The notes under the pieces are model-generated. The model saw only the letters and a program-made list of their open reading frames with translations. It ran no database searches and was not told the origin of the DNA. DNA of 64,000 nt from an uncultured Desulfatiglans sp. (GTDB lineage: Bacteria; Desulfobacterota; DSM-4660; Desulfatiglandales; HGW-15), in NCBI GenBank assembly GCA_964499695.1, contig CAZCMD010000003.1:12842-76841 (forward strand), written 5' to 3'. The translations under genes and the position numbers were made by a program. This document shows positions 3,603 to 50,395 of this stretch, one piece after another (the stretch's first letter is position 1; every line of letters begins with the position of its first letter).

Positions 3603-5468
3603 TTATATAACACCTTTATATGGTCTTGCAATGCTCAACTTCTTCATTCGTGATCTCAGAGTCGAATCTTTCAAACCTAAAATTCTGGCAGCGCCATTTT
3701 TCCCGCTAACCCGCCATCCTGTTGAATTCAACACCTTTATAATGTGTTCTTTTTCCATATCTTCCATTGACATATTCTTGCTTGCAGGGGCAGCTTCAGC
3801 CTGCTCTTGTTCCAGTTTCAGTGTTGATCCGCTGCTCATTATCATACCACGTTCAATAACATTTTTAAGCTCTCTCACATTCCCCGGCCAGTTATTGCTC
3901 TGCAGCTCATCCATATTTTTTTTGGGAATTATTTTTATGGATTTACCCATGCTCTGGGAAAACTCCTCAACAAAGGCCCATACGAGGAGCGGAATGTCTT
4001 CTCTTCTCTCCCGCAATGGAGGGACCATGATAGGGAAAACATTAAGACGATAGAATAAATCTCTCCTGAATACATCCTTCTTTACGAGCTCAGCCAGATT
4101 GTGATTTGTAGCGGCTATTACACGAACGTCTACAGACACGGTTTTTGCACTGCCAAGCCTTTCAAATGTACCGTCTTCAAGAACCCTTAAAAGCTTGGCC
4201 TGGAGTTCCAGCGGAAGGTCCCCGATTTCATCAAGGAATATGGTTGATTTGTCGGCAGCTTCAAACCGGCCGGCCTGTCTGGATGCGGCGCCGGTAAAGG
4301 CGCCCTTTTCACGCCCGAACAGCTCACTCTCGATAAGGCTCGCCGGTAATGCCGCACAATTTACCCTTATCATGGAACGAACATTCCTGGGGCTGAGATT
4401 ATGTATTGCCCTTGCAAGCATCTCTTTTCCCGTTCCGGTCTCTCCGGTAATAAGAACACTTGTATTCTCCTTTGCAACCCTTTCCACTGCCATGAGAACT
4501 TTTTTGATAGCCCTGCTCTCTCCAATGATTTCATTGTGCCTGTATCTGGTTTCCACCTCTTTTCTGAGGTAGATATTTTCTTCTTCAAGCTTATTCTTCA
4601 GGGCATTAATTTCAATAAATGCCTTTTTAAGTTCATTTTCAGATTTTTTTCTTTCTGTAACATCCCTTGTGAGAGAAAGGAGGAGGGATTTTTCCTCAAG
4701 ATCAACGCGCCCCAGGCGGACTTCCACGGGAAATGTGCTTCCATCCTTCCTCCTGTGGATACTTTCAAAGGTGATATGCTTTTCAGATTGCAAAGGGCCC
4801 CAGTATCTGTCTCTGTGCCCCTTTTCTGCTACATCCATATCCACATCAGATATACTCATCGTTAAAAGTTCATCTCTACTATAACCCAGCATTTCGCAGG
4901 CTGTCAGGTTGACATCCATTATCTTGCCAACGTAATCATGTATGAAAAATCCGTCACCTGCCTGTTCAACAAGCATCCTGAATCTCTTCTCACTCAACTG
5001 AAGGGCTATGGTTGCAGCTTTTTTGTCGGTAATATCCATAATGAACCCTTCATATATGGTTTTACCCGATTTAGCCTTTACAGCCCTGGCCCTGATACTG
5101 GTCCATACAGCCTCACCATCTCTTCGCTTGAGCCTGATTTCAGCGCCGTCAACGAACCCCTGGGATTTCATCCTGTGTACTATACCATCTCTCTCCTTCG
5201 GGTCCATGTAAAGCTCTGCTGCATTGGTGCATGATTTTAACAGCTCCTCCTTTGAGTTGAACCCGAGCATCTGGGCCAGCCGCCTGTTGGCAAGAAGAAA
5301 TTCACCATCTTCATTTGAACGGTAGAACCCGACCACGGCATTTTCTATCAGACTCTGGAATCCGTTCTCTATCTCAGGCATACTTTCTAATTTTATGGTG
5401 TCCTGAATTTCTTTTCCCGTGCTCTTTTGCGTTTTTACCCTGACCTTTTTACCAGGTATACGGCCCAT
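3603..5468 (-). CDS. sigma-54-dependent transcriptional activator with two PAS domains (bEBP)
   Basis: AAA+ core has Walker A GETGTGKE, the GAFTGA loop (EKGAFTGA) and ESELFG, plus a C-terminal Fis-type HTH (AARILGLKDSTLRSRMKKL). Start placed at ATG 5468 (GGAGAAGATCAA-ATG); the maximal ORF extends to 5651. Confidence 0.85.
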   Translation of the reverse strand: MGRIPGKKVRVKTQKSTGKEIQDTIKLESMPEIENGFQSLIENAVVGFYRSNEDGEFLLANRRLAQMLGFNSKEELLKSCTNAAELYMDPKERDGIVHRMKSQGFVDGAEIRLKRRDGEAVWTSIRARAVKAKSGKTIYEGFIMDITDKKAATIALQLSEKRFRMLVEQAGDGFFIHDYVGKIMDVNLTACEMLGYSRDELLTMSISDVDMDVAEKGHRDRYWGPLQSEKHITFESIHRRKDGSTFPVEVRLGRVDLEEKSLLLSLTRDVTERKKSENELKKAFIEINALKNKLEEENIYLRKEVETRYRHNEIIGESRAIKKVLMAVERVAKENTSVLITGETGTGKEMLARAIHNLSPRNVRSMIRVNCAALPASLIESELFGREKGAFTGAASRQAGRFEAADKSTIFLDEIGDLPLELQAKLLRVLEDGTFERLGSAKTVSVDVRVIAATNHNLAELVKKDVFRRDLFYRLNVFPIMVPPLRERREDIPLLVWAFVEEFSQSMGKSIKIIPKKNMDELQSNNWPGNVRELKNVIERGMIMSSGSTLKLEQEQAEAAPASKNMSMEDMEKEHIIKVLNSTGWRVSGKNGAARILGLKDSTLRSRMKKLSIARPYKGVI

Positions 5469-5492
5469 TTGATCTTCTCCATAAAAAATCTT

Positions 5493-5531
5493 ACTAGCGA
5501 AATATCGCAAATAAAACGATATTTCGCTAGT
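5493..5531. promoter_or_regulatory. 15-bp perfect inverted repeat, candidate enhancer (UAS) for the adjacent bEBP
   Basis: ACTAGCGAAATATCG-N9-CGATATTTCGCTAGT, in the divergent intergenic region about 95 bp upstream of the -24/-12-like element. Confidence 0.35.
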
Positions 5532-5625
5532 ATTTTTTTGTAATTCCATCATCGAAAATGATTTGATCAGGATATGTTGAGTGTTTTCAATGAAATACGC
5601 CATGACATAATAACCCTGCCAGAAC

Positions 5626-5639
5626 GGCATGCTTATTGT
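5626..5639 (+). promoter_or_regulatory. candidate sigma-54 (-24/-12) promoter
   Basis: cGGCATGcttaTTGTa versus the consensus TGGCACG-N4-TTGCW. Spacing is correct, but -12 is GT rather than GC. It lies 125 bp upstream of ATG 5764. Confidence 0.25.
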
Positions 5640-5763
5640 AACTACTACCAATTAAAAATTACTTTTATTGAAATATGGAAAAAATAAATTTTCCTTAGTT
5701 TTTACGGACGGGGCTTCCCATGACTTATCAATTACTGACCTTTTCAAGAGACGGGCTTAAAAT

Positions 5764-6096
5764 ATGATAGTCCTTATCCTTACCCTGAAGGTATCTCCCT
5801 CAGATCGGAAGCATGTTGTGAGCATATTTAACACAATAGCCGGTTCAACATCTGTAAAGCCGGGATGTAAAAAAGTAAAGTTCTACTCTGATGTCGATGA
5901 TGATGATGAACTTTTGTTGATAGAAGAATGGGAAACAATGTCTGAGCTTGAACGGCATATAGTATCTGCTGATTTTCGAAAGATAATGGCAATTATGGAT
6001 ATGGCAATCGAGCCGCCTGATATCTCATTCAACACAGTCACATCGATAAAGGGTTTTGAACTGGTCGAAAAAATTCGGGAGAGTGTTAACACATGA
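5764..6096 (+). CDS. ABM (antibiotic-biosynthesis-monooxygenase-like) dimeric alpha+beta barrel protein
   Basis: 110 aa. GC..V.FY....D.......EEWET...LE.H..S..F matches the ABM-domain pattern. Confidence 0.6.
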   Translation: MIVLILTLKVSPSDRKHVVSIFNTIAGSTSVKPGCKKVKFYSDVDDDDELLLIEEWETMSELERHIVSADFRKIMAIMDMAIEPPDISFNTVTSIKGFELVEKIRESVNT

Positions 6097-6147
6097 GTTT
6101 TATTTTTTCGGTGATCATAAATATCAACATACAAGGAGGTTATTAAA

Positions 6148-7107
6148 ATGAAAAAGAAAGTATTCGTTGACCTTACCCATCCATTCAGTGCGGAGATCCC
6201 GCGCTGGCCCTATTTCGTCAAACCGGTCATAGACTCCATGCATACCATGGCAAAGGGAGGTGTACTTACCCAGAGGGTCGATTGCGTACAGCACACAGGC
6301 ACTCATGCCGATGCACCGCGTCATGTAATGGAACGTGAGTTCAACGGTAAGAGAGCGCGGTATACCCACGAAATGCCTGTTGACGCCTACACCGGAGACG
6401 CAATCTGCCTTGAGATCAAAATACACCGCTGGGGCCTGATCCTGCCCGAGCATCTCGAGGATGCCTGTAAACGTGCAGGTATTAAACCGGAAGAACTCAA
6501 GGGCATGGTTGTCTGCCTGAATACTGGGATGCACCGAAAATTCGACGACTCCAAAGAATACTATCACTATTCATGCGGGACAGGCGTAGAAGCGGGCAAA
6601 TGGTTTGTAAAACACAAGGTTAAATGTGTGGCCATGGACATGCAGGCACTGGACCATCCCCTCCATACGGCCATGGGTAAAAATGGTCCACCCCAGATGA
6701 ATCTGCCAGGGGCTTCCGGAAAGCCCATCACGGTAGAATATGCCGAACAGTTCGGTGAAGAGGCCTATGCCGAATTTGAGAAAGCAGCCTACATAAAGCT
6801 TCATGGCCAGAAGGCCTATGATGCCAAATTTGGTGACCTGGAAAAAATCGGGTGTGAGGGAACCTGGGAACCATGCCACAAGCAGATGCTGGGACATGGC
6901 ATAGTTGGAGTGGAGAACCTCGGCGGAGATCTGGACAAGGTATCAGGGAAACGTTTCAGGTTCTACTGCTTCCCGATCCGCTGGTACATGGGTGACGGCG
7001 CCATGGTGCGCTGCGTAGCCGAGATCGATGAATCAGAGCTGAATGATGTTCCTGACAGAACCTACACCTACTGTGGGACAGGATACGGACCGGCCTGCGA
7101 AAGATAA
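6148..7107 (+). CDS. cyclase-family metal-dependent hydrolase (kynurenine formamidase/isatin hydrolase fold); candidate ring hydrolase
   Basis: DLTHPF and the HTGTHADAPRH (HxGTHxDxPxH) metal motif, with an AAGGAGG RBS. At 319 aa it is longer than the simple roughly 210-aa members. Confidence 0.75.
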   Translation: MKKKVFVDLTHPFSAEIPRWPYFVKPVIDSMHTMAKGGVLTQRVDCVQHTGTHADAPRHVMEREFNGKRARYTHEMPVDAYTGDAICLEIKIHRWGLILPEHLEDACKRAGIKPEELKGMVVCLNTGMHRKFDDSKEYYHYSCGTGVEAGKWFVKHKVKCVAMDMQALDHPLHTAMGKNGPPQMNLPGASGKPITVEYAEQFGEEAYAEFEKAAYIKLHGQKAYDAKFGDLEKIGCEGTWEPCHKQMLGHGIVGVENLGGDLDKVSGKRFRFYCFPIRWYMGDGAMVRCVAEIDESELNDVPDRTYTYCGTGYGPACER

Positions 7108-7190
7108 AGGGTTACAGGAAAGCCGATCTCTCCGGTCATCACAGTAGATCGGGGAGATCGGAAGGATATTATATTAATGGAGAATCGATA

Positions 7191-8216
7191 ATGATGTCCA
7201 ATAAACTGTTTTACTTATTGCGTCTTATTCTTCTATCTCTGATTTTTTCTTCATGCATGACAGGGTGTAACAATACTGATCCTGCTGAGCCGGAGAACAA
7301 CCAAAATACTGGTTTTAGTGCACAGGTGATCAAACATACAGATAAGCTGTATGATGTTTCCGTTGCCGGTTCCGGTAATGTCTGGGTAGTAGGATATTTT
7401 GGCGTGATCTTTCATTCCACTGACAACGGTCTGAACTGGATCAAAATAGATGCCGGCACAAAGGCATCTCTTTTAGGGGTCAGTTTTGTAAATGAAAAAA
7501 CGGGATGGATTGTGGGTGATCAGGGTACCATTCTCCATACGGTTGACGGAGGTCAAACCTGGGAAAGACAAAAAAGCCCGGTAGCAAATGAAAAGCTTCT
7601 GAAAGTCCAGTTCATAAATGATAAACAGGGATGGATTGTCGGCACCTTCGGACTTGTCCTGTACACCGGAGATGATGGCATGAACTGGGAGCGACTTCCA
7701 TTTACCGAGGATGTGATTCTGAATGACCTCTGTTTTATTAATCCAAATCAGGGATGGATTGCCGGTGAATTCGGAATGGTACTTTATACTGAAGACGGAG
7801 GAAAGACATGGGTAAAACAGCTTGAAGATGAAATGGGTAGGAAGATGTTCGGAATTGCATTTATAGATTCCCTTCATGGGATCGTTGTCGGAAATGAAGG
7901 AGTTATCTACACAACCAGAAACGGCGGCAAAGATTGGGAACTTAAAAGCACAGAAAATGGTGACACCCTTTTGAAGGTGGCATTTGCGGATGACACTCAT
8001 GCAACTGCTGTTGGTCTCAGGGGGTGCATGACTGCAACCGAGGACGGTGGAGATAACTGGAGATCGGTCTGCCCCCTGAACCACTTTACATGGCTTTCAG
8101 GTATAGCCTATGACAAAAGAGGAAGAGGCTTTGCTGTGGGTGATGGCGGAAATATTTTGACGAGCAATGATTCAGGTCTTGGCTGGGCGCCCTATAATCA
8201 GCCAGCACAAAAATAA
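7191..8216 (+). CDS. Ycf48-like / BNR (Asp-box) beta-propeller lipoprotein
   Basis: Lipobox-like IFSSC. Seven Asp-box repeats: STDNGLNW, TVDGGQTW, TGDDGMNW, TEDGGKTW, TRNGGKDW, TEDGGDNW, SNDSGLGW. Confidence 0.75.
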   Translation: MMSNKLFYLLRLILLSLIFSSCMTGCNNTDPAEPENNQNTGFSAQVIKHTDKLYDVSVAGSGNVWVVGYFGVIFHSTDNGLNWIKIDAGTKASLLGVSFVNEKTGWIVGDQGTILHTVDGGQTWERQKSPVANEKLLKVQFINDKQGWIVGTFGLVLYTGDDGMNWERLPFTEDVILNDLCFINPNQGWIAGEFGMVLYTEDGGKTWVKQLEDEMGRKMFGIAFIDSLHGIVVGNEGVIYTTRNGGKDWELKSTENGDTLLKVAFADDTHATAVGLRGCMTATEDGGDNWRSVCPLNHFTWLSGIAYDKRGRGFAVGDGGNILTSNDSGLGWAPYNQPAQK

Positions 8217-8258
8217 GGTATCTGTGACTTGTAATTATTATTTAGTCGGAGTAACAGA

Positions 8259-10589
8259 ATGTATAAAATACTGGTAAGTTTTCTGATACGTTTCAGGATA
8301 CTGGGTCTGATAGCCATGGCTGTCATAACCGGATTTTTCGCAACTCAGATAATCAATATGGAGATGTATACCCAGTTTCTTGATCTTTTTCCGCACAACC
8401 ATCCCTATGTCCAGGTTCATGAGAAATACAGCAAGTACTTTGGAAGTGCCTATCAGGCAAACCTGATGATTGAGGTCAGGGAGGGTACAGTTTTTAATAT
8501 CGATACCCTTGAAAAAATCAGCAGGATACAGATGGAGGTCGATCTGATACCAGGGGTAGATCACTTCGGGATTTCTTCACTTGCCAGTCCCCGTGAGACA
8601 GTTGCAAGAGAAACACCTGATGGCATATCTGTCAAGCCCATCATGAAGAATCCCCCCAGGGACATAGAAGAAATCAACGACCTCAGGAGAAAGGTATTTA
8701 CCAGCCAGGCATACGGCACACTGGTTTCAAGGGACCAGAAGGCATTGATCCTGAATGCCAACTTTCACCAGGGGCGGCTTGATTTTAATCTCCTTTTTGA
8801 TAAATTCATGGAGATCAAAAAGAAGGAAGAAGACAAAAATCACAGGATATATCTCAGCGGTCAACCGCTTCTTTACGGGTGGATATACCATTACCTTCCT
8901 GACATGGGTATCATTTTCATTTCAACAACCGTTGTAATGCTCATCATGCTTTTTATGTATATGAGGGGCTTTGGATTCTGGTGGATACCATTATTAACCG
9001 CCATTATAAGCAGTGTATGGGGGCTTGGCATCGCAGCCATGTGGGGCTTTCATTTCGATCCGCTTATTATAGTTATTCCTTTTCTGTTGAGTGCACGGGC
9101 AATCAGTCACTCAATTCAATGGTACGAAAGGTTCATCGAGGAATACAGTGTCCTTGGAGATACTAAAGAGGCCGCCATGTTGACCGGCGCAGGCATGTTT
9201 CCTCCCGGAATGATCGGGATAGTAACAGATGCCGCAGGGCTCTTCATTATAAGCCTGGCCCCTGTGCCCATACTAAAAAACCTGGCTTACCTTGGAACGA
9301 CATGGGCCCTCAGCGTTATCTTTGCTGTCCTGGTTTTTATGCCGATGTTCTTTGCCACATTAAAACATGTGAAGGTGCCGGTGTCAAAAAAGATAGAAAA
9401 AGGTATTCTGGTCCGAACCCTTTCTGTCCTTACCGGCTGGACCTTTGGAAAGGGAAGATTTGCAGTTCTCGCAATAGCAGGCATTCTACTGATTTTTGGA
9501 ATCATCTCTTCAAGGCAACTGAAATTCGGGGATGCAAATCCGGGGAGCCCGATCTTCTGGCAGGATGCGCCCTATAATACAGACACCGAACAGATTAACA
9601 GCCGTTTTCCGGGCGTTGACCAGATGTGGGTGGTATTTGAATCAAGCGGTGACTATCCTGCAATTGTTCAGCCCGAACTCATGCAGGGAATGGAATCTCT
9701 CAAACAGTATATAATTGATGATCCAAATGTTGGTCATGCCCTTTCACTGGCAGACCTTGTAAAAAGCGTGGGTATGCTGGCATATGGCAATGATCCCAAA
9801 TTTGAATCCATACCTTCGGACAGAGGCGCTATTCATGATCTCCTGTCATTCTACAAAATGGGGGCAACCGCAGGGGATCTGGACAAATGGGCAGAACCAA
9901 CACTCAGCGCTGCCAATGTAAGGATATTCCTGAAGGATCACAGGGGAGACACACTGGTAGAGGTAATAGACCGGATCAAAAAATTCATCGCTGAAAACAA
10001 GGACTCAATGGGTAATTCCGTAATGAAACCTGCCGGTGGTCTGGGCGGGATACTGGTTGCCGCCAATGAGGTTATTGCCGAGAAAAACGATCAGTTGCTT
10101 TATCTGGTCTTAGGCATAATCTTCATTCTCTGTTCAATAACGTATCGTTCATTTACAGCAGGATTCATGTTCGTGTTTTCACTTGTCCTGGCTAATTTTT
10201 TTGCCTTTTCATACATGGTTTACCGGAATCTGGGACTTAATATCAACACACTTCCCGTAGTCTCACTTGGAATAGGCCTCGGGGTTGACTATGGTCTCTA
10301 CATTATAAGCCGTATAAAGGAAACCTATATTAAGGAAAAGGACCTGTCAAAGGCAGTAATAAAGGGTGTAACGACTTCAGGCAGGGCGGTTTTCATGACT
10401 GCTACCATGATGACCATAGGAGTTGTATTCTGGTATTTCTCACCATTGCGATTTCAGGCGGAGATGGGAATATTGCTTGGAATTCTCATGATGTCCAACA
10501 TGTTTGTCGGCATTGTGATTCTTCCGGCTATCGTCAATGTAATAAAACCAAGGTTTATTCTTGGGAAGAAAGGCAGCAATATTTTGTAA
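8259..10589 (+). CDS. RND-superfamily (MMPL/HpnN-like) inner-membrane transporter
   Basis: 776 aa with two hydrophobic 6-TM bundles, each preceded by a large soluble loop. It sits with the DUF1302/DUF1329/BNR partners. Confidence 0.8.
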   Translation: MYKILVSFLIRFRILGLIAMAVITGFFATQIINMEMYTQFLDLFPHNHPYVQVHEKYSKYFGSAYQANLMIEVREGTVFNIDTLEKISRIQMEVDLIPGVDHFGISSLASPRETVARETPDGISVKPIMKNPPRDIEEINDLRRKVFTSQAYGTLVSRDQKALILNANFHQGRLDFNLLFDKFMEIKKKEEDKNHRIYLSGQPLLYGWIYHYLPDMGIIFISTTVVMLIMLFMYMRGFGFWWIPLLTAIISSVWGLGIAAMWGFHFDPLIIVIPFLLSARAISHSIQWYERFIEEYSVLGDTKEAAMLTGAGMFPPGMIGIVTDAAGLFIISLAPVPILKNLAYLGTTWALSVIFAVLVFMPMFFATLKHVKVPVSKKIEKGILVRTLSVLTGWTFGKGRFAVLAIAGILLIFGIISSRQLKFGDANPGSPIFWQDAPYNTDTEQINSRFPGVDQMWVVFESSGDYPAIVQPELMQGMESLKQYIIDDPNVGHALSLADLVKSVGMLAYGNDPKFESIPSDRGAIHDLLSFYKMGATAGDLDKWAEPTLSAANVRIFLKDHRGDTLVEVIDRIKKFIAENKDSMGNSVMKPAGGLGGILVAANEVIAEKNDQLLYLVLGIIFILCSITYRSFTAGFMFVFSLVLANFFAFSYMVYRNLGLNINTLPVVSLGIGLGVDYGLYIISRIKETYIKEKDLSKAVIKGVTTSGRAVFMTATMMTIGVVFWYFSPLRFQAEMGILLGILMMSNMFVGIVILPAIVNVIKPRFILGKKGSNIL

Positions 10590-10641
10590 ACAAAGACTGT
10601 CAATTAATAAAAAGATCAACAACTAAATCAAGGAGGGGAAG

Positions 10642-12207
10642 ATGATAAAATTTAACTGGAAAATGGGATATGTAATGCTCATTGTCTCAGGTTTTTTGGC
10701 TTTTCTATCGCCGTCCCGCAGCTCGGCTCTTGATGATGTCAACTTGAGCGATGATACTCAATTGAGTGTTTATGGCTGGTTCAGGAACAATCTTGGTGTT
10801 TTTACGGATGAACAGACTTATGTTCAAAACGGGAATGATCTGGCAACGGCAAGGACATGGCTCAGGGTTTACGGTGATCTCAAATTCTCTGACAAGTTGA
10901 GTTTTTTCACGGGCATACAATTCGTATACGAACCTGAATACGACATCGAGGAGGGATCAATAAGTGACCAGTATCATAGCGGAAAGGTATACAGTGAATA
11001 TGACAAAATCACAGATGTGCTGCGTGAAATATATGTTGACTGGCGTCCGTCTGATAAGCACAGTATAAGGCTTGGCCGTCAGATTGTTATATGGGGTGAA
11101 TCCCTTACAACGCGCGTAGGGGATGTTATTCATCCTGAAGATCAGCGCTTTACCTTTGCCTTCGCAAATATGGAAGATACCCGTATCCCTCTATGGATGA
11201 TTAAGGGACTCCATTATTTTGACGCAATAAACGGAAGCATAGAATGGCTTGTATCTCCCAATATTATCCATGAAAAGGAGTATCTTGTTAATCGTTCCGG
11301 AGAATTTCCGCAGGCTGATCAGGATGGTGTAATTCAGCCCGGACAAAGATTTGGTCTTTACCCTGAAGACAGGACAGCAGCCGGAAATCCTATCATCAGA
11401 TCATTTGCTCCTCCCTTTCCGGGCGCCCCCTTCATGGTTCCATTTGAAATCCCGCATGTTTTTGATGAATACCCGCGGAATACCGCGGATGATCTTCGGT
11501 ATGGTTTCAAGACAAGTACATTTTTAGGCGGGTACGAATTTGGAATGATGTACTATCACACCCAGAGCTATGATCCGGTTATAAAATATGGAGAATTGCA
11601 TGCCTCGCCCATGCCTGGGATTATACCCCCTACCAGAGACTATATTATGGTGCATCCGGAGATCGATATCTTCGGTTTTTACGGCAATAAGGATATACCG
11701 ATTGGTATGCTCAGGGCAGAGATGATTTATATACCGGATAAGCCCTATAACACATTTGACCGGACAGACGCTGATGCCGTTACCGAAACAGATTATGCCA
11801 AATACATGATAGCCTGGGACCTAAACGGCCTGTTTTATTTTCCATGGCACAAATCAGCCCCGTTTGATGTGAGCCTTGAGCACGTGGGGGAGTGGGTGAA
11901 TGACAATGATGATGTCCAGCATGCAATATATAATACAGAGATTGAAGAATGGACTCCATCCTTTAATGGAAGGATATCAACCAACTTTTTCTACAACAAG
12001 CTTTCTACGGAACTGATTGTATCATACGCAACAAAGGATAAAAGCGGCCTTGTTATGCCGGTAGTTAAATATACTCCAAGCTGGCAAAACAAGGCGCTCT
12101 CATTTGAACTGCGGTATATAAATATATTTGGTGAGAGCAATTACAGCGGTCTTGGTATCTTACAGCAGAAGGACATGTTTGTATTAACATCACAGTTCAA
12201 TTTTTAA
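10642..12207 (+). CDS. DUF1302-family outer-membrane protein
   Basis: Signal peptide, then IRLGRQIVIWGESL...DVIHPEDQR, the characteristic DUF1302 core. Aromatic C-terminal residue (QFNF). Confidence 0.7.
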   Translation: MIKFNWKMGYVMLIVSGFLAFLSPSRSSALDDVNLSDDTQLSVYGWFRNNLGVFTDEQTYVQNGNDLATARTWLRVYGDLKFSDKLSFFTGIQFVYEPEYDIEEGSISDQYHSGKVYSEYDKITDVLREIYVDWRPSDKHSIRLGRQIVIWGESLTTRVGDVIHPEDQRFTFAFANMEDTRIPLWMIKGLHYFDAINGSIEWLVSPNIIHEKEYLVNRSGEFPQADQDGVIQPGQRFGLYPEDRTAAGNPIIRSFAPPFPGAPFMVPFEIPHVFDEYPRNTADDLRYGFKTSTFLGGYEFGMMYYHTQSYDPVIKYGELHASPMPGIIPPTRDYIMVHPEIDIFGFYGNKDIPIGMLRAEMIYIPDKPYNTFDRTDADAVTETDYAKYMIAWDLNGLFYFPWHKSAPFDVSLEHVGEWVNDNDDVQHAIYNTEIEEWTPSFNGRISTNFFYNKLSTELIVSYATKDKSGLVMPVVKYTPSWQNKALSFELRYINIFGESNYSGLGILQQKDMFVLTSQFNF

Positions 12208-12240
12208 TGACCTGTTCTATTTGCTAAAGGGAGGCAAAAA

Positions 12241-13482
12241 ATGAAAATGAAAATTAGAAAACAAGTAATATTAGCCGGTCTTTCAGGTTTACTGCTTGCA
12301 TTGTGCCTGAGCTTTATTGTTCCTGCCCAGGAAAGCATGCCCCAACCCGGTACAACAATAGATAAGAATAATTATTCACAATATAAAGATTTTTTTCCGG
12401 ATTTTTTTCATGAGGCATTTACAACAGGTTGGGAGATGGTAGAGCCCCTGAAGATAACTATTCAGGCCACATCATCAAACCCTGTGCCCAAACCCTTCCT
12501 GGAGGCCACTGCCAAAAATAAGGGTAAGTATTCCATTGATTCCTCCGGATATATAGCAGGAGGCGATTATAAGGATATTGTGGGATTTCCATTTCCTGAT
12601 TTGAACCCTGATGACAAGGATTTTGCAGTCAAATTTATGTGGAATTTCGATTACCGGTATAAACTGGATGATATGTATGCCATGTTTTTGAATTATGAAA
12701 AGAGGAAGGGTGAACCAACGGTCCTGTCAACTGTAGAATCATGGCAGGTATCATTCCAGAATAGAATGTTCGAGGATCCAAAACCCCTGTACCAGACAGC
12801 CAATGGCCTGAGGTCTGTGAACTTCCTTAGAAATGTCTCCCCGCCTGTTCAGAAAAATTTCATGACACTGCTCATAAGGTATATAGACCAGAAGGAGCCA
12901 GACGCCACTTTCCTTTACCTGCCGAGCATGAGACGGACATTAAGGGGAGAGGCCGGAGAAAGATCAACCCCGATCCAGTCATCCACTCAGGCACCTGATG
13001 ATTTCGAAGGAGGGTTCAATGGCCGTATCCCGGAATTCAAATACAACTATCTGGGCGAGAAAAAAATAATCGTTCTGGCAGATGCCAAACTTGGTTTCAA
13101 GGATGTGAAGGATTCCCATTCCAATATGATCCCTGTAGAAAACAAAGGGTGGGAAGTAAAGGATGTCTATATTTTTGAAATAACCCCGAAAGATCCCAAG
13201 TATCCCCATGGGAAGAAGGTTATTTATATAGACAGGGAAAACTACTGGCCCTACTACTGCGCAGGCTGGGATCGTGCAGGCGCCCTGTGGAAGGTATGGC
13301 AGACAGCTATAACAAAACAGGCTAATGCCAAAGGCGAAGCCTTCCCCTATTTCAAGGGTATGCTGGGGGTGGATGTTCAGCTCGGTTACGCTGTCAACAT
13401 GTTTACGGACTGGCAGGCCAATGGAAATAATTTAAAAGAGTCAGATGTCTCTGTTTCTTCCATGCGCAGAAGGGCAAGGTAG
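12241..13482 (+). CDS. DUF1329-family (LolA-like) periplasmic protein
   Basis: Signal peptide; size and position immediately after DUF1302 as in the conserved pair. The family call is from pattern memory only. Confidence 0.65.
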   Translation: MKMKIRKQVILAGLSGLLLALCLSFIVPAQESMPQPGTTIDKNNYSQYKDFFPDFFHEAFTTGWEMVEPLKITIQATSSNPVPKPFLEATAKNKGKYSIDSSGYIAGGDYKDIVGFPFPDLNPDDKDFAVKFMWNFDYRYKLDDMYAMFLNYEKRKGEPTVLSTVESWQVSFQNRMFEDPKPLYQTANGLRSVNFLRNVSPPVQKNFMTLLIRYIDQKEPDATFLYLPSMRRTLRGEAGERSTPIQSSTQAPDDFEGGFNGRIPEFKYNYLGEKKIIVLADAKLGFKDVKDSHSNMIPVENKGWEVKDVYIFEITPKDPKYPHGKKVIYIDRENYWPYYCAGWDRAGALWKVWQTAITKQANAKGEAFPYFKGMLGVDVQLGYAVNMFTDWQANGNNLKESDVSVSSMRRRAR

Positions 13483-13604
13483 CTTTTTATAATTGTAATT
13501 TTTTTCGCTTCACCCTCCCCGTTCCCCCGATCTCATGATGGATGGGGCGGTGAGGGTGTTAACAAGCATACAGAAATTATGCTGTAGTTTGAGATGGATA
13601 TATA

Positions 13605-14633
13605 ATGACCAGAAGAGAAAATGCCCTTATTGCCTATCATCATGGGGTGCCGGCATTCATACCTGCATTATTTACGGATATCTCTATCTTACAGGCCAGG
13701 CCGCAAATGGAACGTTATTGCGGTCTTGATTCGGGTCTTGATGAGTTCGGTATTGATTGGACCTATGTACCGCAGGCAAGGGCACCAATGCCCACCGCAG
13801 GAAAAATAATGTTTGAGGATATTAATGACTGGAAAAACCATGTAAAGTTTCCGGACCTGGAGGCTGTTGACTGGGAAAAACAGGCGAATATCGATGTCCA
13901 TACGGATTTTATGGCATTGGTCGCTGGCGCCGGTATTGTTCCAAGGGCCGACGGGAAAAGTGCATATGATGAAGAGAAACTGGTTTTATGCATGGTCATC
14001 AATGGACCTTTTGAACGTTTACACGCCATGATGGGATTTGAAAATGCGCTGATGGCCCTGGCCTCTGATCCGGATGAATGTTATGCCTATTTCAAAGCGA
14101 TTGCTGACTGGAAGATAGAGTATTTTAAGAAAATTGTTAGATATTATAAAGTAGATGTTATTAATGCACATGATGATTATGGAGCTGCAGATCGTATGTT
14201 CATGGCACCGGATACCTGGAGAAAACTTATCAAACCTCATTTAAAGAGAATGGTTGATGCGTGCCATGAGGCAGGAGTGATGTATCAACACCACAGTTGC
14301 GGTCACATTGAACCGATTTTTAAAGATTTTGTTGAGATTGGCGTTGATGCAATTGATCCCCTGCAGGCAGGAAGTAATAAAAACCTTGGTGAACTGAAGT
14401 TAATATTTGGAGATAAGATTACATTTTGCGGTGGTTTTGACAATCAGAAGGTTTTGGAAAAACCCGGGGTAACTTCAGAGGAAATCAAGACAGAATACCG
14501 CAGGGCAATTGATACCCTGGCGCCGGGGGGAAGTTATGTAGCATTTCCAATTACCATAGGGTTTGATTTTGTAGGGCCGTTTCTGGAAGAACATTTTCAA
14601 TATGGCATGGGATTTTATGCAAATCAACAGTAG
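13605..14633 (+). CDS. uroporphyrinogen-decarboxylase (URO-D) family protein, MtaA/CmuA-like methyltransferase type
   Basis: 342 aa with an N-terminal 'RENALIAYHHG' and a C-terminal 'HSCGHIEPIF..F.E.GVDAIDPLQ' pattern typical of URO-D-fold cobalamin-dependent methyltransferases. Confidence 0.65.
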   Translation: MTRRENALIAYHHGVPAFIPALFTDISILQARPQMERYCGLDSGLDEFGIDWTYVPQARAPMPTAGKIMFEDINDWKNHVKFPDLEAVDWEKQANIDVHTDFMALVAGAGIVPRADGKSAYDEEKLVLCMVINGPFERLHAMMGFENALMALASDPDECYAYFKAIADWKIEYFKKIVRYYKVDVINAHDDYGAADRMFMAPDTWRKLIKPHLKRMVDACHEAGVMYQHHSCGHIEPIFKDFVEIGVDAIDPLQAGSNKNLGELKLIFGDKITFCGGFDNQKVLEKPGVTSEEIKTEYRRAIDTLAPGGSYVAFPITIGFDFVGPFLEEHFQYGMGFYANQQ

Positions 14634-14720
14634 AAAATTACAGAACGAATCAACAATACCGGCAAACCTTGCAGGGATGCTGGCCGTGATCAATTATTAA
14701 GAATAAATGGAGATATTATT

Positions 14721-15644
14721 ATGGGAAAAGTTATAATTACAGCAGCTCTTACGGGAGCTATCCACACGCCATCCATGTCGGAATATCTTCCGTTCAGGAT
14801 AGAAGATATGGTTGAAGAGGCGGTCAGGTCATATAATGCAGGCGCAGCCGTAGTACATGTACATGCAAGAAATCCGGAAAACGGTATACCCTCTTCCAGT
14901 GTTGAGATATTCAGGGAGATATTAAGCCGTATAAAGGCTGAATGCAATGCGGTTATTACACCTACAACAGGAGGGAGTTATACAATGACTCCAAAGGAAA
15001 GGCTGGCTGTGGTAAGCGCCCTCAAGCCTGAAATGGCCACATTCAACGCAGGTTCTCTGAATTTTGCATTGTACCCGGTTCTGGAAAAGTACAGGGAATT
15101 CAAATATGACTGGGAGGAAGGCTATCTGAAGGGTACAGAGAGCTTTATCTTTTCCAACCATTTTGAATCGTTACATATCTATTCAAAGACAATGAATGAG
15201 ACAGGCACAAGGCCTGAAATAGAGATATATGATGTGGGGCAGATAAATAATGTAGCCCAGCTCTTAAGAGAAGGATACCTGAAGAAACCTGTATATCTCC
15301 AGTATGTTATGGGCATCCTGGGCGGCATTCCCGCAACTGCTGACAACCTTCTGTATCTGATAAGGGAGTCAAAAAGATTACTTAAGGAAGATTTCATATG
15401 GTCTGTCTGTGCAGCAGGAAAATTCCAGTTTTCCATGGGTGTCATCAATGTACTTGAAGGGGGTTTCTGGAGGGTTGGGCTGGAAGACAACCTTTACATA
15501 GAGAAAGGCGTGCTTGCTAAAAGTAGCGCTGAACAGGTTGAGAAGGCGATCCGTATTATTCGTGAACTCGGGTATGAACCTGCAACGCCTGATGAGGCCA
15601 GGGAGATATTGGGATTAAAAGGGATTGGAAAGGTAGAATACTGA
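14721..15644 (+). CDS. BKACE-family beta-keto acid cleavage enzyme (DUF849, Kce-like); candidate triacetate acetoacetate-lyase
   Basis: KVIITAALTGAIHTP and AAVVHVHARNPENG (His-x-His zinc site) are hallmark BKACE motifs. Confidence 0.8.
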   Translation: MGKVIITAALTGAIHTPSMSEYLPFRIEDMVEEAVRSYNAGAAVVHVHARNPENGIPSSSVEIFREILSRIKAECNAVITPTTGGSYTMTPKERLAVVSALKPEMATFNAGSLNFALYPVLEKYREFKYDWEEGYLKGTESFIFSNHFESLHIYSKTMNETGTRPEIEIYDVGQINNVAQLLREGYLKKPVYLQYVMGILGGIPATADNLLYLIRESKRLLKEDFIWSVCAAGKFQFSMGVINVLEGGFWRVGLEDNLYIEKGVLAKSSAEQVEKAIRIIRELGYEPATPDEAREILGLKGIGKVEY

Positions 15645-15646
15645 AG

Positions 15647-15768
15647 AAGGGTTCAAGGGCCCAAGGGTTCAAGGGAAAAGGTCCGGCACATGGCTCAAGG
15701 TGCAGGGCGCAGGGAAAGATAAAAAAGATGACATTACTGTAGGGGCAGGCCTGCGTGCCTGCCCGCAG
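15647..15768. repeat. intergenic tandem 13-mer (aagggttcaaggg x2) plus TGTAGGGGCA-type hairpin (gggcaggc-N6-gcctgccc)
   Basis: 13-mers at 15647-15659 and 15663-15675; 8-bp stem at about 15743-15764. Confidence 0.5.
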
Positions 15769-15820
15769 ATGATTGTACAGTATAAGAGGCACAGGGCAAC
15801 TACTTAATAGAAAGGAGAAA

Positions 15821-16609
15821 ATGATGAAAAAGGGTGATGAATTGTTAAAGGATCTTTTTGATATATCGGGAAAGGTGGCCATTGTTACAGGTGCAACCGG
15901 GGGTTTTGGGAGTGTAATAAGTATGGCACTTGCTATGGCAGGTGCAAAGGTCATGGCCACAGGACGTGGTGAGGATAAACTTAAATCGCTTGTAGAAAAG
16001 ATAAAAAAGGAAGGCGGGGTCGCATCTTTTACAGCAGGATCTCCTGTAAATCATGATGATGTAAAGAGGGTAGTAAAGGAAACAGTTAACACCTTCGGGA
16101 GGGTGGACATTCTTATTACTGCGGCCGGTACGAGTAAACCTGCTCCGATTATTGAACAGCCCCTTGAAGAATGGGAAATGATAATGGATACCAATGTAAA
16201 AGGTACTTACCTGTTCTGCAAGGAAGCAGGAAAGGTGATGATTGAACAGGGTAAGGGCGGAAAGGTTGTCCTTTTGGGTTCAGCAAGGGGTGATCTGGGT
16301 ATGGCCAATTACTCCGGTTACAGTACTTCAAAGGGAGCTGTCCATCTTCTTGCAAAGACCCTAGGTTGTGAATGGGGGCAGTACGGAATAAATGTAAATG
16401 CCATAGCGCCCACTGTTTTCAGAACAGCTTTGACCCAGTGGATGTTTGATGACAATGCATTCTACAAGAATTTTTTAAAACGGATTCCAATAGGCAGGCT
16501 TGGAGAACCGGAAGATTTTATCGGCATAGTGATATACCTTTGTTCAAAGGCCTCGGATTTTATAACGGGAGCTATTATACATACTGACGGCGGTTATGCT
16601 GCCGGATAA
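15821..16609 (+). CDS. short-chain dehydrogenase/reductase; candidate phloroglucinol reductase
   Basis: ORF 15773..16609, start moved to ATG 15821 (AAAGGAGAAA-ATG). TGATGGFGS cofactor motif and YSTSK catalytic motif. Confidence 0.85.
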   Translation: MMKKGDELLKDLFDISGKVAIVTGATGGFGSVISMALAMAGAKVMATGRGEDKLKSLVEKIKKEGGVASFTAGSPVNHDDVKRVVKETVNTFGRVDILITAAGTSKPAPIIEQPLEEWEMIMDTNVKGTYLFCKEAGKVMIEQGKGGKVVLLGSARGDLGMANYSGYSTSKGAVHLLAKTLGCEWGQYGINVNAIAPTVFRTALTQWMFDDNAFYKNFLKRIPIGRLGEPEDFIGIVIYLCSKASDFITGAIIHTDGGYAAG

Positions 16610-16629
16610 CCTCATTTTAGAAAAAATAG

Positions 16630-16709: not shown

Positions 16710-16776
16710 TTAAATAACAATGTGATTTTGACCAGGATAACAATTTTTATAAACATGACATAAAAGGTGCTGCAGG

Positions 16777-17718
16777 ATGTCTGAAATAATGAAAATAACC
16801 GTTATTGGCGCCGGCCTTATGGGGCATGGCATTGCGCAGGTTTTTGCTCAAAATGGATACCCGGTTACATTGATGGATTTAAATGAGGAGTTTCTTGCCA
16901 ATGCGGCAAAAAATATCCGGGCAAATCTGACTTTAATGGCCGAAAATGGTATCGGCTCTTATAATGATATTGATTCGATAATTTCCAGGATAAAATTTAC
17001 TATGGAGATGTCTGAGGCAGTATCCGAAGCAGATTTTGTGGTTGAGGCCGTTTCAGAAAATCTTGACCTGAAACAGAATATATTCCAGAAACTGGATTCC
17101 CTGTGCCGGCGGGAAACAATACTTGCCACAAATACCTCTGTTATAAGCATTACGGAAATAGCTTCGAAATCAATATACCGTGACAGGATCGTTGGTACCC
17201 ACTTCTGGAACCCGCCATACCTGATCCCGCTGGTTGAGGTAGTCCGTGGAAAGGATACATCAGATGGAACAATGGATAAGACTTTTTCTCTGCTCCAATC
17301 TGTGGGGAAGCATCCTGTCCGTGTAAATAAAGACGTTCCCGGGTTTGTAGCCAATCGTTTACAGCATGCACTCTGGCGTGAAGCCATCTCAATTGTCGAG
17401 AAAGGTATCGCTGATGCAGCAACGGTTGATGAATGTGTAAAATACGGGTTCGGTTTAAGGCTGCCGGTCCTTGCTCCTATGGAAAATGCTGACATGGTCG
17501 GGACAGATCTTACACTTGCCATTCATGATTATATCCTGAAACACCTTGAGAGTTCGCCTGAACCATCTCCTCTATTGAGGAAACTGGTTGAGGAAAAAAG
17601 TCTTGGGTTTAAGTCCGGTAAGGGATTTCAGGAATGGCCTGAGAATAAAGCCAACGAGTCAAGAAAGAGGCTCCGGAAATACCTGATGGGAGTAATAAAA
17701 GAGGGAGTTAAAGCATAA
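16777..17718 (+). CDS. 3-hydroxyacyl-CoA-dehydrogenase-fold NAD-dependent dehydrogenase
   Basis: ITVIGAGLMGHGIAQVFA Rossmann motif and HFWNPP motif typical of the Hbd/FadB-N/L-carnitine dehydrogenase family. Confidence 0.85.
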   Translation: MSEIMKITVIGAGLMGHGIAQVFAQNGYPVTLMDLNEEFLANAAKNIRANLTLMAENGIGSYNDIDSIISRIKFTMEMSEAVSEADFVVEAVSENLDLKQNIFQKLDSLCRRETILATNTSVISITEIASKSIYRDRIVGTHFWNPPYLIPLVEVVRGKDTSDGTMDKTFSLLQSVGKHPVRVNKDVPGFVANRLQHALWREAISIVEKGIADAATVDECVKYGFGLRLPVLAPMENADMVGTDLTLAIHDYILKHLESSPEPSPLLRKLVEEKSLGFKSGKGFQEWPENKANESRKRLRKYLMGVIKEGVKA

Positions 17719-18962
17719 TGACAATTATGTATCCAAGGTACCGCTGGTTTACGCTGATTACAATCATAGCTGCCCATTTACTTCAGGGAATGGCCCTGAT
17801 CGGCCCAACGCCGCTGGTGGGATCAATAGCTGAATCTCTGAATCTTAATCTTGGTGCAGCAACTGCAGCTTCTATGCTGCCTTTCACGCTGATGGTTGCA
17901 ATAGGCGGACTCATAAGCGGTATGGTAATTGACCGGTGGGGACTCGCAAAAACATATGTCCTGTTCTGTTCGCTGGAGACAATTGCAGCGCTGCTCCTTC
18001 CTGCACTTGGCACCTCTGCGGCGGGGCTGGCTGTTATTCGAGGGCTTCAGGGTCTTGGATGCGGGCCTATTACCGCATCAGGCCCTAAAATGGCATCGGA
18101 ATGGTTTCCCCGCACTCAAAGGTCAATGGTTCAGGGCGTCACAGGTGCATCTCTTTCTATGGGTATTATCGTTGGCCTTAATATCGGTCCTGTCATCGCA
18201 CAAACAAGAAACTGGAATACTGCGCTTACAGTGCTGGGAGGCCTTATGATTATTGCTGTCATATTAAGCACAATTTTTATTTTTGGTCCGGAATCGCCCG
18301 GATCAATAGAGGATCAGGCCCCAAAAGAGCGTGTGTCAAAGGACTTTAAAAAGGTGTTCGGCCTGCCGGCCTTCTGGATGACATTCCTGTCCACGTTTAC
18401 ACTTGCATGGGTAATGCAGGGGTACCAGGATCTGACACCGGGGCACATAGCGGTTTCTCCGCCGGTCGGCCTTGGACTTGGAAGCATAATATCCGGACAA
18501 ATGATGGCGCTGCTTGTGTTCGCCTTTGTACTGGGATCACTTTCCACACCGGTTATTGCAGAGAAGATCTTCAGGGGTAAATATGGCAGGGCAATTACAG
18601 TAAGTTTTTGCCTTACCGCCTTTTTCTGCATCTCGGTAATGTGCCCTCTCGTTAAATCAAGTATACCTCTCTTAATAATATGCCTTTTTCTCGCCGGATT
18701 CTTCATGGGTATGCCTATGGCAACCGGCATGTCATTTATCGCCAACAATTACCCTGAACACATTACCGGCAGCGTGGGAGGGTTCACAATGGGGCTTGGT
18801 ATTTTCGGCGGTGCAATAGGAGTTGCAGCCGGATCAACAGCCCTGCATATTACCGGGATGTATAATGTATCTATAATTATCGTCGGCGTGGTTGCCGTGA
18901 TTGGTGCGATCGCAGGTTTTGGAATAAAACAGGTAAATATATTTGATGAAAACCCGGAGTAA
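17718..18962 (+). CDS. MFS transporter
   Basis: About 12 hydrophobic segments. The start overlaps the upstream stop (TAATG), suggesting translational coupling. Confidence 0.8.
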   Translation: MTIMYPRYRWFTLITIIAAHLLQGMALIGPTPLVGSIAESLNLNLGAATAASMLPFTLMVAIGGLISGMVIDRWGLAKTYVLFCSLETIAALLLPALGTSAAGLAVIRGLQGLGCGPITASGPKMASEWFPRTQRSMVQGVTGASLSMGIIVGLNIGPVIAQTRNWNTALTVLGGLMIIAVILSTIFIFGPESPGSIEDQAPKERVSKDFKKVFGLPAFWMTFLSTFTLAWVMQGYQDLTPGHIAVSPPVGLGLGSIISGQMMALLVFAFVLGSLSTPVIAEKIFRGKYGRAITVSFCLTAFFCISVMCPLVKSSIPLLIICLFLAGFFMGMPMATGMSFIANNYPEHITGSVGGFTMGLGIFGGAIGVAAGSTALHITGMYNVSIIIVGVVAVIGAIAGFGIKQVNIFDENPE

Positions 18963-18966
18963 CAGT

Positions 18967-21718: not shown

Positions 21719-21757
21719 ATGGGATATAAACCTTTCCAATATAATTTGAGTTTTATT

Positions 21758-50381: not shown

Positions 50382-50395
50382 AGGAGGGTATAAAC

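Follow-up and report, generated by a model that had tools for sequence, protein, structure and literature searches.

Why should genes for a transport system that would span both membranes of a diderm cell stand amid genes for the degradation of plant polyphenols, and what might such a system carry, and in which direction? This question is raised by a stretch of contig CAZCMD010000003.1 from an uncultured Desulfatiglans sp. (GenBank assembly GCA_964499695.1, positions 12,842 to 76,841; "the window" hereafter is this full 64-kb stretch), in which four adjacent genes encode a Ycf48-like BNR β-propeller, an RND-type inner-membrane protein, a DUF1302 β-barrel and a DUF1329 periplasmic protein, preceded by the genes of an ABM-fold protein and of a Cyclase-family hydrolase. 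The explanation that accounts best for the locus as a whole, to which a probability of about 0.5 is given, is that of a sigma-54-dependent flavonoid/phloroglucinol catabolic operon of a Desulfatiglans-like anaerobe, carrying an embedded cassette of the AmeABCD type that exports aglycones. Its parts are not equally secure: the identity of the genes, their regulation and the cassette nature of the envelope set, taken jointly, are very probable; a flavonoid-class substrate is, on the gene content, somewhat favoured; and an outward direction of transport, argued by analogy with relatives, comes at best to an even call.

A preliminary description of this DNA, made from its letters and a list of open reading frames (ORFs), had proposed a six-gene operon divergent from a sigma-54 activator. 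The ORF table reproduces all six plus-strand genes exactly, and the intervals between them, from ABM through DUF1329, are 51, 83, 42, 52 and 33 bp, within the narrow range (33–83 bp) that had been announced. The profile search that it had recommended bears out all six family calls (ABM, Cyclase, Ycf48/BNR, HAE3/MMPL RND, DUF1302 and DUF1329), each with a Pfam score over the gathering threshold. The regulatory head and the six genes are as follows.

3603..5468, minus strand: sigma-54 enhancer-binding protein (bacterial enhancer-binding protein, bEBP), PAS-PAS-AAA+-HTH_8, 621 aa (Pfam and NCBIfam)
5492..5532, no strand: upstream activating sequence (UAS), perfect palindrome TACTAGCGAAATATCG-N9-CGATATTTCGCTAGTA, presumed bEBP binding site
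5625..5640, plus strand: sigma-54-type promoter CGGCAT-GCTTA-TTGTA (−24 GG, −12 TG), facing the ABM gene
5764..6096, plus strand: ABM-fold protein, 110 aa (PF03992, 48.1 bits)
6148..7107, plus strand: Cyclase-family hydrolase, candidate dihydrophloroglucinol cyclohydrolase (DPGC) (PF04199, 108.9 bits)
7191..8216, plus strand: Ycf48-like BNR β-propeller, probable lipoprotein, AmeC-like (PSII_BNR, 134.1 bits)
8259..10589, plus strand: HAE3/MMPL-type RND inner-membrane protein, 776 aa, AmeD-like (MMPL, 110.9 bits)
10642..12207, plus strand: DUF1302 outer-membrane β-barrel, AmeA-like (PF06980, 51.9 bits against a gathering threshold of 23.2; profile match 76–541 of 541)
12241..13482, plus strand: DUF1329/LolA-like periplasmic protein with a signal peptide, AmeB-like (PF07044, 131.3 bits; LolA_like, 41.3 bits)

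The BNR protein does contain the seven Asp-boxes ([ST]x[DN]xGxxW) attributed to it, together with lipobox-like SSC/TGC at its N-terminus. Among NCBIfam profiles the RND protein lies nearest to HAE3 (TIGR00921, 127.8 bits, under the subfamily cut-off of 351.9), and its hydropathy profile gives a 12-segment-like layout with two large loops, in the order TM1, loop, TM2–6, TM7, loop, TM8–12. Its stretch GVDYGLYIISR lines up with the Asp-Tyr motifs that MmpL3 has in both its halves, where the Asp-Tyr pairs form a proton relay. Its matches in the Protein Data Bank (PDB) are weak ones, to MmpL3, MmpL5 and HpnN (28–38 bits for HpnN/MmpL3). The core motif RLGRQIVIWGE already noticed in the DUF1302 protein is present, accompanied by a signal peptide and a C-terminal aromatic β-signal ending in SQFNF; of the family calls this one has the weakest profile score, and almost every one of the 120 listed homologues has PF06980. 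Its AlphaFold2 model, built from 43 sequences, is a barrel of ~20 strands (pLDDT 82, pTM 0.80) with a loose likeness only to porins (TM-scores of 0.4–0.57), the structure models being of single chains only. The sole PDB sequence relative of the DUF1329 protein, 3bk5, is a putative lipoprotein-sorting protein, and for none of the DUF1302, DUF1329 and RND proteins does the PDB have a close relative. The idea of Thompson et al. that DUF1302 and DUF1329 proteins are esterases clashes with the barrel and LolA-like folds and was set aside.

The envelope set had been called uncharacterised, and this holds in part: it belongs to the AmeABCD type, for which genetics, cofitness and co-folding are already on record, and biochemical proof of substrate, direction and architecture is indeed missing. 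AmeABCD of Castellaniella defragrans 65Phen is a tetrapartite HAE3 RND system in a monoterpene island, and its deletion lowers the tolerance of non-functionalised monoterpenes and increases Nile Red accumulation (PMC6394551). Both it and the window set consist of DUF1302, LolA-like DUF1329, COG4447/Ycf48-like BNR and ~780-aa HAE3 RND proteins encoded by adjacent, co-oriented genes, and both lie within an island for the catabolism of plant compounds that are hydrophobic and toxic to membranes. The two differ in gene order (DUF1302-DUF1329-BNR-RND for AmeABCD, BNR-RND-DUF1302-DUF1329 in the window) and in host and context, a betaproteobacterium with monoterpenes in one case and a member of the Desulfobacterota with flavonoids and phloroglucinol in the other; and whereas AmeABCD lies between catabolic operons, the window cassette sits inside one, with a sigma-54 promoter, a PAS bEBP and an ABM leader. 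Every sequence-level feature of AmeABCD membership is found in the window set.

The wider family has been met repeatedly. The four families are cofit by RB-TnSeq (random barcode transposon-site sequencing) in Shewanella, Kangiella and Pseudomonas (10.1101/072470; 10.1101/2020.07.04.188060), AlphaFold co-folding predicts one complex of DUF1302 with DUF1329 and another of DUF1329 with BNR and RND (PMC10866462, PMC13499233), and Price et al. had earlier drawn attention to DUF1329 genes in clusters for phenanthrene, p-cresol and steroids. In Pseudomonas putida, PP_0765/PP_0766 (DUF1302/DUF1329) and PP_2018/PP_2019 (BNR/RND) keep within each pair the order of the window; the Pseudomonas pairs, however, are split across the genome, are associated with LuxR or AraC regulators and are tied to growth on Tween 20 or fatty esters, in contrast to a contiguous set under sigma-54/bEBP control in polyphenol catabolism. 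More remotely, the hopanoid transporter HpnN and MmpL3, lipid exporters of the HAE3/HAE2 groups that take hydrophobic cargo from the inner membrane, share with the window protein the MMPL-type RND fold and the Asp-Tyr motif, with weak sequence likeness; unlike the window RND, HpnN acts without dedicated barrel, LolA-like or BNR partners (PMC6394551). HAE1 pumps of the AcrAB-TolC type share with the window set an RND protein and an exit through the outer membrane, and their co-location with genes for the catabolism of toxic aromatics has precedents; the window set has a LolA-like carrier, a BNR propeller and a DUF1302 barrel in place of the membrane fusion protein (MFP) and the outer-membrane efflux protein (OEP)/TolC channel, and Pfam finds no HlyD/MFP or OEP domain in 5764–13482, while both occur with an AcrB-type gene at 58254–63878. 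What is new here relative to the known examples is the phylum, the permuted order, the sigma-54/PAS-bEBP control, the ABM leader and the flavonoid/phloroglucinol context. In the literature searched, whose coverage is incomplete, no report of an envelope cassette inside a phloroglucinol cluster was found.

How, then, is the locus controlled? The bEBP contains, according to Pfam, two PAS domains, a Sigma54_activat domain (237 bits), AAA_lid_14 and HTH_8 (36.6 bits), with a Walker A motif at residue 342 and a GAFTGA motif at residue 389. The start first assigned to it, a TTG at 5651, is over-extended: because the first 53 codons of the ORF so listed take in the UAS and the promoter, the start is moved to the ATG at 5468, which is preceded by a GGAG Shine-Dalgarno sequence and gives a protein of 621 aa, the length called independently for the orthologues in two of the related loci that were compared with the window and are numbered with the prefix L (L018 and L019). 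The 61 codons of the original ORF between 5469 and 5651 are non-coding and hold both the UAS and the promoter, and the correction frees 295 bp (5469–5763) ahead of the ABM gene, where the earlier coordinates implied a gap of 112 bp. Directly downstream of the bEBP gene lies a gene for a PQQ_2/BamB-like β-propeller (2263–3534, minus strand), found in the same place in L011 (88% identity) and not beside the bEBP gene in the other orthologous loci.

The UAS palindrome occurs once in the window. All 12 loci with enough sequence upstream of ABM keep it, with at most 4 mismatches in 26 positions and at a distance of 127–132 bp upstream of the −24 element. Across 11 loci the differences between its arms comprise 22 one-sided changes and no compensated one, which indicates a pair of DNA half-sites, as in a dimeric binding site, and not an RNA hairpin; a hairpin or terminator, for which spurious miRNA matches also came up, is rejected on the same ground. 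As the palindrome sits 24 nt before the ATG of the bEBP gene, it is likely to serve also as the operator for autoregulation. A canonical TGGCAC-N5-TTGCW sequence was not found in the divergent gap, and the suspicion first drawn from this failed search, that the bEBP does not control the operon, was reversed by phylogenetic footprinting: in alignments of the orthologous loci upstream of ABM, the block (T/C)GG(C/T)A(C/T)-N5-(T/A)TGTA is essentially invariant, and each of the 12 loci contains exactly one −24/−12 match, 121–143 nt before the ATG of ABM. The promoter is therefore singled out by its conserved position and not by its score. Read as a sigma-70 promoter, the block fits poorly by eye, with a spacer of 12–13 nt. 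With the UAS and the −24/−12 element at fixed spacing between the two genes in all 12 loci, the description of the bEBP as dedicated to the operon is upheld. The window itself contains no rpoN.

The synteny survey proposed in the preliminary description confirms a link between the envelope set and the catabolism of aromatics, in an arrangement conserved in 10 loci of the Desulfobacterota: the window, L006/L015, L016, L007, L011, L014, L018, L019, L020 and L032. The full order runs from the bEBP gene on the opposite strand through UAS, promoter, ABM, DPGC, BNR, RND, DUF1302, DUF1329 and a URO-D or Cupin gene to TAL, SDR, 3HCDH, MFS, a phloretin-hydrolase-like gene and CHI onward (these pathway genes are named below). 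The nearest relatives of the RND protein (57–93% identity) all come from metagenome-assembled genomes (MAGs) of Desulfobacterota, the best from an uncultured Desulfatiglans sp. Between loci the enzymes are 85–98% identical and the envelope proteins diverge more, to 37–90% for DUF1302. The RND and DUF1302 genes, 52 bp apart in the window, overlap by 4 nt in L032 (5724–5727) and L033 (2401–2404), which suggests that the inner- and outer-membrane components are translationally coupled.

The comparison also separates the cassette from what surrounds it. In L022 a segment of 318 bp (1693–2011) replaces the 6.7-kb segment of L018 (6428–13157) that holds exactly the four envelope genes, and the two loci are otherwise collinear, with flanks of 73–84% nucleotide identity. 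The envelope set is a modular cassette, because L022 lacks just its four genes while L017 and L024 keep ABM and the cassette without the cyclase; the four genes form a module that can be inserted after DPGC, ahead of the other phloroglucinol-pathway genes. L017 (9732–19434) carries two URO-D-family genes of 420–430 aa and a CoA-transferase gene after the cassette and has no adjacent bEBP gene; it does keep a UAS-like palindrome and a −24/−12 element, and the UAS and promoter are retained in all the operon variants. The conserved unit is therefore the head, made up of UAS, sigma-54 promoter, ABM and usually a divergent bEBP, with a modular payload of which the envelope set is one cassette. Remoter paralogous sets in the same lineage have as neighbours genes for IclR regulators, for an acyl-CoA ligase and dehydrogenase, for an amidohydrolase or for bEBPs of the GAF type. 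A single 2,465,564-bp contig of the European Nucleotide Archive (ENA) from the Desulfobacterota encodes at least five DUF1302 paralogues (P0243, P0247, P0264, P0268 and P0279), so that this lineage carries many Ame-type sets.

The ABM gene is promoter-proximal in all three operon variants. The AlphaFold2 model of its product is a ferredoxin-like fold (pLDDT 83.5) whose Foldseek matches are ABM proteins, among them LsrG, an O2-independent isomerase, and FasU, a polyketide cyclase. Its clade is small and comprises 46 cluster representatives that share at least 54% identity with it, and when metagenomes were scanned with the ABM alignment no contig longer than 4.4 kb came back. Neither simple pairing of this gene survives: L017 and L024, with ABM and envelope genes and no cyclase, rule out that it goes with DPGC, and L022, with ABM and no envelope genes, rules out that it goes only with the cassette.

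What pathway surrounds the cassette? The six genes are more probably the head of an array of ~16 genes than an operon by themselves, as same-strand genes run past 13482 to 23740, where this co-directional array ends and a convergent TetR gene (23779–24417) follows. The further genes of the array are these.

13605..14633, plus strand: URO-D/MtaA-like protein, possible methyltransferase (PF01208, 63.4 bits; MtaA/CmuA, 61 bits, below cut-off)
14721..15644, plus strand: BKACE enzyme, candidate triacetate acetoacetate-lyase (TAL) (BKACE, 332 bits)
15821..16609, plus strand: SDR, candidate phloroglucinol reductase (PGR) (adh_short_C2, 184 bits)
16777..17718, plus strand: 3-hydroxyacyl-CoA-dehydrogenase-family protein, candidate (S)-3-hydroxy-5-oxohexanoate dehydrogenase (TfD) (3HCDH_N, 218 bits)
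17718..18962, plus strand: MFS transporter, candidate for inner-membrane uptake (MFS_1, 130 bits)
18967..19587, plus strand: 2,4-diacetylphloroglucinol (DAPG)/phloretin-hydrolase-like (Phy-like) protein (PF18089, 24.1 bits against a gathering threshold of 22.7; weak, C-terminal part only)
19777..20616, plus strand: bacterial chalcone isomerase (CHI) (Chalcone_N, 186.8 bits)
20651..21583, plus strand: flavone reductase (FLR)-like FMN protein (FMN_red, 70 bits)
21719..23740, plus strand: OYE + Pyr_redox_2 flavoenzyme of enoate-reductase type, last gene of the array (Oxidored_FMN, 195 bits; Pyr_redox_2, 103 bits)

No convincing intrinsic terminator was seen between the genes of the window array, and in L015 and L016 the gaps are just 9–110 bp right into the pathway genes; the gene order most probably reflects one transcript that begins at ABM and continues through URO-D, TAL, PGR, TfD, MFS, Phy-like, CHI, FLR and enoate reductase. 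Rfam and tRNA scans gave no matches.

The cyclase had been described as a small-molecule enzyme tied to the envelope set. It is not an accessory of the transporter and most likely belongs to the phloroglucinol pathway: the closest homologues (96% identity; L001–L003) stand alone in unrelated contexts, without ABM or envelope genes, which rules out that the enzyme belongs to the transporter. Homologues at 88–90% identity sit in SDR-3HCDH-IclR-Cyclase-BKACE clusters with a molybdopterin enzyme, and in Firmicutes and Actinobacteria there are homologues that share ~80% identity with the protein. Its Trp20 and Tyr22 are the substrate-recognition residues of CsDPGC, the biochemically characterised enzyme of Clostridium scatologenes, in which two recognition residues set DPGC apart from isatin hydrolase (PMC10470551). 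Judged by these residues and by its neighbours, the cyclase is most likely DPGC, the ring-cleavage enzyme of the phloroglucinol pathway. An exact-sequence look-up of the protein gave no match, and the PDB contains neither a DPGC structure nor a close relative of the cyclase. Its gene has a GC content of 52% (57.5% at third codon positions, GC3), against roughly 40–49% in the other genes of the cluster; this composition and the high identity suggest strong constraint and/or horizontal transfer of the cyclase gene alone.

The remaining candidates follow the same pathway. The TAL candidate scores 391 bits on NF053538 (3,5-dioxohexanoate:acetyl-CoA acetone transferase), under the equivalog cut-off of 430, and the TAL and Phy-like assignments are to be read as lying under, or barely over, curated thresholds. 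The PGR and TfD candidates are clear members of the SDR and 3HCDH families. The SDR, which probably starts at the Met at 15821 and not at a TTG at 15773, has its best PDB match in 5g4k/5g4l (258 bits; the next is at 186); 5g4k is provisionally taken to be a Clostridium PGR, which a literature search on the entry did not confirm. The URO-D gene is variable, being present in L007, L011, L014 and L032 and absent from L006 and L016, with two copies after the cassette in L017. The C. scatologenes cluster (PGR, DPGC, TfD, TAL and MFS; PMC10470551) contains the same enzyme families as the window, with CsTfD likewise of the 3-hydroxyacyl-CoA-dehydrogenase family, the same Trp20/Tyr22 pair and an MFS gene; it belongs, however, to a monoderm, has neither envelope system nor ABM and is under another regulator, while in the window the envelope set splits DPGC from TAL, PGR and TfD. 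A phloroglucinol cluster has already been reported in Gram-negative sulfate reducers (PMC10470551). Related clusters in L032 (15980–17280), L004 and L005 encode AthL-like molybdopterin enzymes of the pyrogallol-phloroglucinol transhydroxylase type, which point to an input of trihydroxybenzene and gallate in those organisms; no such enzyme is encoded in the window.

The flavonoid genes would serve the steps that precede phloroglucinol. CHI matches the Eubacterium ramulus CHI structures 4d06 and 3zph over its full length (327 bits), and the FLR-like protein matches PDB 7d38–7d3b, four entries of a 310-aa protein, also at full length (481 bits); the FLR structures are described as one apo form and three flavone complexes, in agreement with this set of four (PMC7862272). 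By comparison with the flavonoid enzymes of E. ramulus and Flavonifractor plautii (CHI, EnoR, PHY, FLR; PMC7862272), the window CHI and FLR genes are adjacent as in F. plautii. The Phy-like protein at 18967–19587 is 86–88% identical in the orthologous loci. A second DAPG/phloretin-hydrolase homologue lies at 24811–25509 (57.7 bits), just past the convergent TetR gene, and this copy rather than the one at 18967–19587 may be the functional phloretin hydrolase. The route described in PMC7862272 and PMC10470551 leads from flavone through flavanone, chalcone, dihydrochalcone, phloroglucinol, dihydrophloroglucinol, 3-hydroxy-5-oxohexanoate and triacetate to acetoacetate and acetoacetyl-CoA, and candidate genes for every step of it are encoded here.

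Beyond the array, the "polyphenol island" of the preliminary description is well founded, as the window also contains the second DAPG-hydrolase homologue, a tannase/feruloyl esterase, a GH3 enzyme, esterases, a TonB-dependent receptor, MATE and MFS carriers and an HAE1 pump. A block concerned with aglycone release (39267–53717) encodes a GntR regulator, a tannase/feruloyl esterase of 912 aa, a GH3 glycosidase with PA14, an FGGY kinase, three α/β-hydrolases or carboxylesterases, a MatC/CitMHS carrier, a SnoaL_4 protein and an aldose 1-epimerase. The HAE1 tripartite efflux system (OEP 58254–59663, MFP 59653–60795 and the AcrB-type RND 60795–63878) ends ~120 bp short of the end of the window and is preceded by a MipA-family gene (57253–58233). 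A direct duplication of 1,956 bp with 99.95% identity (25524–27479 and 36394–38349) carries in each copy a FAD_binding_2/Succ_DH_flav_C flavoprotein gene (25792–27495 and 36662–38362; 99% amino acid identity), and a weaker likeness (70%) goes on at 27730–27977 and 38660–38907; either a recent duplication of the segment or an artefact of the assembly may account for it. Between the duplicates lie genes for an FAD oxidoreductase, the TonB-dependent receptor, a TetR regulator, the MATE carrier and an MFS_2 carrier.

How would such a cassette serve such a pathway? The preliminary description had suggested aromatic or ring-fission compounds as its substrate; the link to aromatic catabolism stands, carried by the synteny of the 10 loci, while ring-fission products are unlikely substrates because they are hydrophilic acids, and hydrophobic flavonoid aglycones are the better candidates, preferred also to phloroglucinol itself. 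In the proposed mechanism, a polyphenol signal would be sensed by the PAS domains of the bEBP, upon which both the cytoplasmic pathway and the envelope system would be made. The RND protein, driven by the proton gradient through its conserved Asp-Tyr relay, would extract membrane-partitioned flavonoid aglycones, chalcones and dihydrochalcones from the inner membrane's outer leaflet or from the periplasm and, with the lipid-anchored BNR propeller as adaptor, pass them to the LolA-like DUF1329 carrier, which would deliver them to the DUF1302 barrel for release outside. The membrane would thereby be spared an intolerable load for as long as the MFS carrier and the enzymes are using up the substrate, a role that has been put forward for AmeABCD with respect to monoterpenes.

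Export is favoured because the characterised RND relatives move their cargo outward, the AmeABCD data agree and the operon already has an MFS importer. HpnN and MmpL3 carry hydrophobic cargo outward from the inner membrane, and to our knowledge every characterised RND relative transports outward. Several observations count against this explanation. With regard to regulation, the −12 element reads GT (TTGT) and not the canonical GC (TTGC), the promoter taken alone scores no better in a weighted scan than many chance matches in the window, and gaps of 122–189 bp within the array could accommodate internal promoters. With regard to the link between cassette and pathway, the phloroglucinol genes can do without the cassette, as in L022 (ABM-DPGC-Cupin-TAL-SDR, with no envelope genes), and the cassette without DPGC, as in L017 and L024, where BNR-RND-DUF1302-DUF1329 come directly after ABM; the related loci are uncultured MAGs or metagenomic contigs throughout. 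With regard to direction, the canonical HAE1 pump and the MATE exporter of the island make further efflux partly redundant, the many paralogous sets beside differing catabolic genes form a pattern more typical of uptake systems, and the need of P. putida for its homologues during growth on Tween 20 fits uptake as well as tolerance.

These last observations lead to the most serious competitor, which is doubtful rather than far-fetched: an uptake conduit that feeds the pathway, in which the DUF1302 barrel would admit aglycones across the lipopolysaccharide barrier, DUF1329 would ferry them inward and BNR-RND together with the MFS carrier would take over. The exporters already in the island, the paralogous sets of the lineage, the Tween 20 growth defects of Pseudomonas mutants and the "substrate transport system" proposed by Foldy all speak for it, as do the placement of the cassette with catabolic enzymes behind a substrate-type promoter and the presence of ABC or MFS transporters instead in monoderm and some other phloroglucinol clusters. 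Against it, the conserved Asp-Tyr relay implies the usual proton-driven outward cycle, the AmeABCD data point to export, and the TonB-dependent receptor and MFS carriers of the island can already explain uptake; we know of no importer in the RND superfamily. In a narrower and unlikely form of the same idea, the ABM-led cassette would serve diderm anaerobes specifically to bring hydrophobic polyphenol aglycones inward across the whole envelope, by way of the DUF1302 barrel and the DUF1329 shuttle and energised or gated by BNR-RND, with ABM as its fifth functional component, for example as a cytoplasmic O2-independent isomerase or a ligand-binding partner; if true, this would give the RND superfamily its first part in catabolic import.

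Less probable again is that the cargo is not a polyphenol at all but an endogenous envelope lipid or cell-wall component, exported to reinforce the outer membrane against polyphenols. The characterised HAE3/HAE2 relatives HpnN and MmpL3 do move lipids, DUF1329 has a LolA-like fold, and the mutant phenotypes in Shewanella and Pseudomonas stutzeri are pleiotropic, the RB-TnSeq work of Price et al. having proposed "cell wall component export"; but none of the 10 loci has a lipid-biosynthesis gene with the cassette, the set lies inside a catabolic operon with a dedicated sensor, and its paralogues stand in other catabolic contexts. It is improbable too, and slightly more so, that the cassette exports unusable end-products of the pathway, such as 3-(4-hydroxyphenyl)propionate released by phloretin hydrolase. 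The array does contain Phy-like, CHI, FLR and enoate-reductase genes and no obvious phenylpropionate catabolism, and E. ramulus excretes the B-ring acid; small aromatic acids, however, need no barrel and LolA-like machinery and could leave by porins, the known links of the family are to hydrophobic compounds, and L017 and L024 have the cassette without adjacent DPGC, the sequenced flanks of L017 being also without a CHI or Phy homologue. Least probable of all is the absence of any functional link, with a mobile cassette landed in a highly expressed operon and kept for reasons other than polyphenols, as the clean presence/absence indel and the faster divergence of the envelope proteins relative to the enzymes might suggest, since the insertion point and order are the same in 10 loci, which come from no fewer than five genomes at species level (those of four GTDB representatives and of the window's organism), even where envelope-protein identity drops to 37–76%, the composition of the cassette matches that of its neighbours, RND and DUF1302 overlap in L032 and L033, and the same promoter/UAS head precedes the cassette in L017.

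For export of aglycones by an embedded cassette, as for the AmeABCD type in general, the interest of the locus lies in its context. Systems of this type are widespread in Proteobacteria and Desulfobacterota and genetically important in several species. The window and its nine orthologous copies place such a system in a pathway with biochemically defined enzymes, from flavone through phloroglucinol to acetoacetate/acetoacetyl-CoA; they thereby offer inexpensive candidate ligands (naringenin, phloretin, apigenin and chalcones), a natural presence/absence pair in L018 and L022, and a portable inducible promoter. For the family, the flavonoid/phloroglucinol operon context points to a likely substrate class. 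For the organisms, uncultured relatives of sulfate reducers in anoxic sediments and soils encode candidates for each step of flavonoid mineralisation, which bears on the preservation of carbon in peat and sediment.

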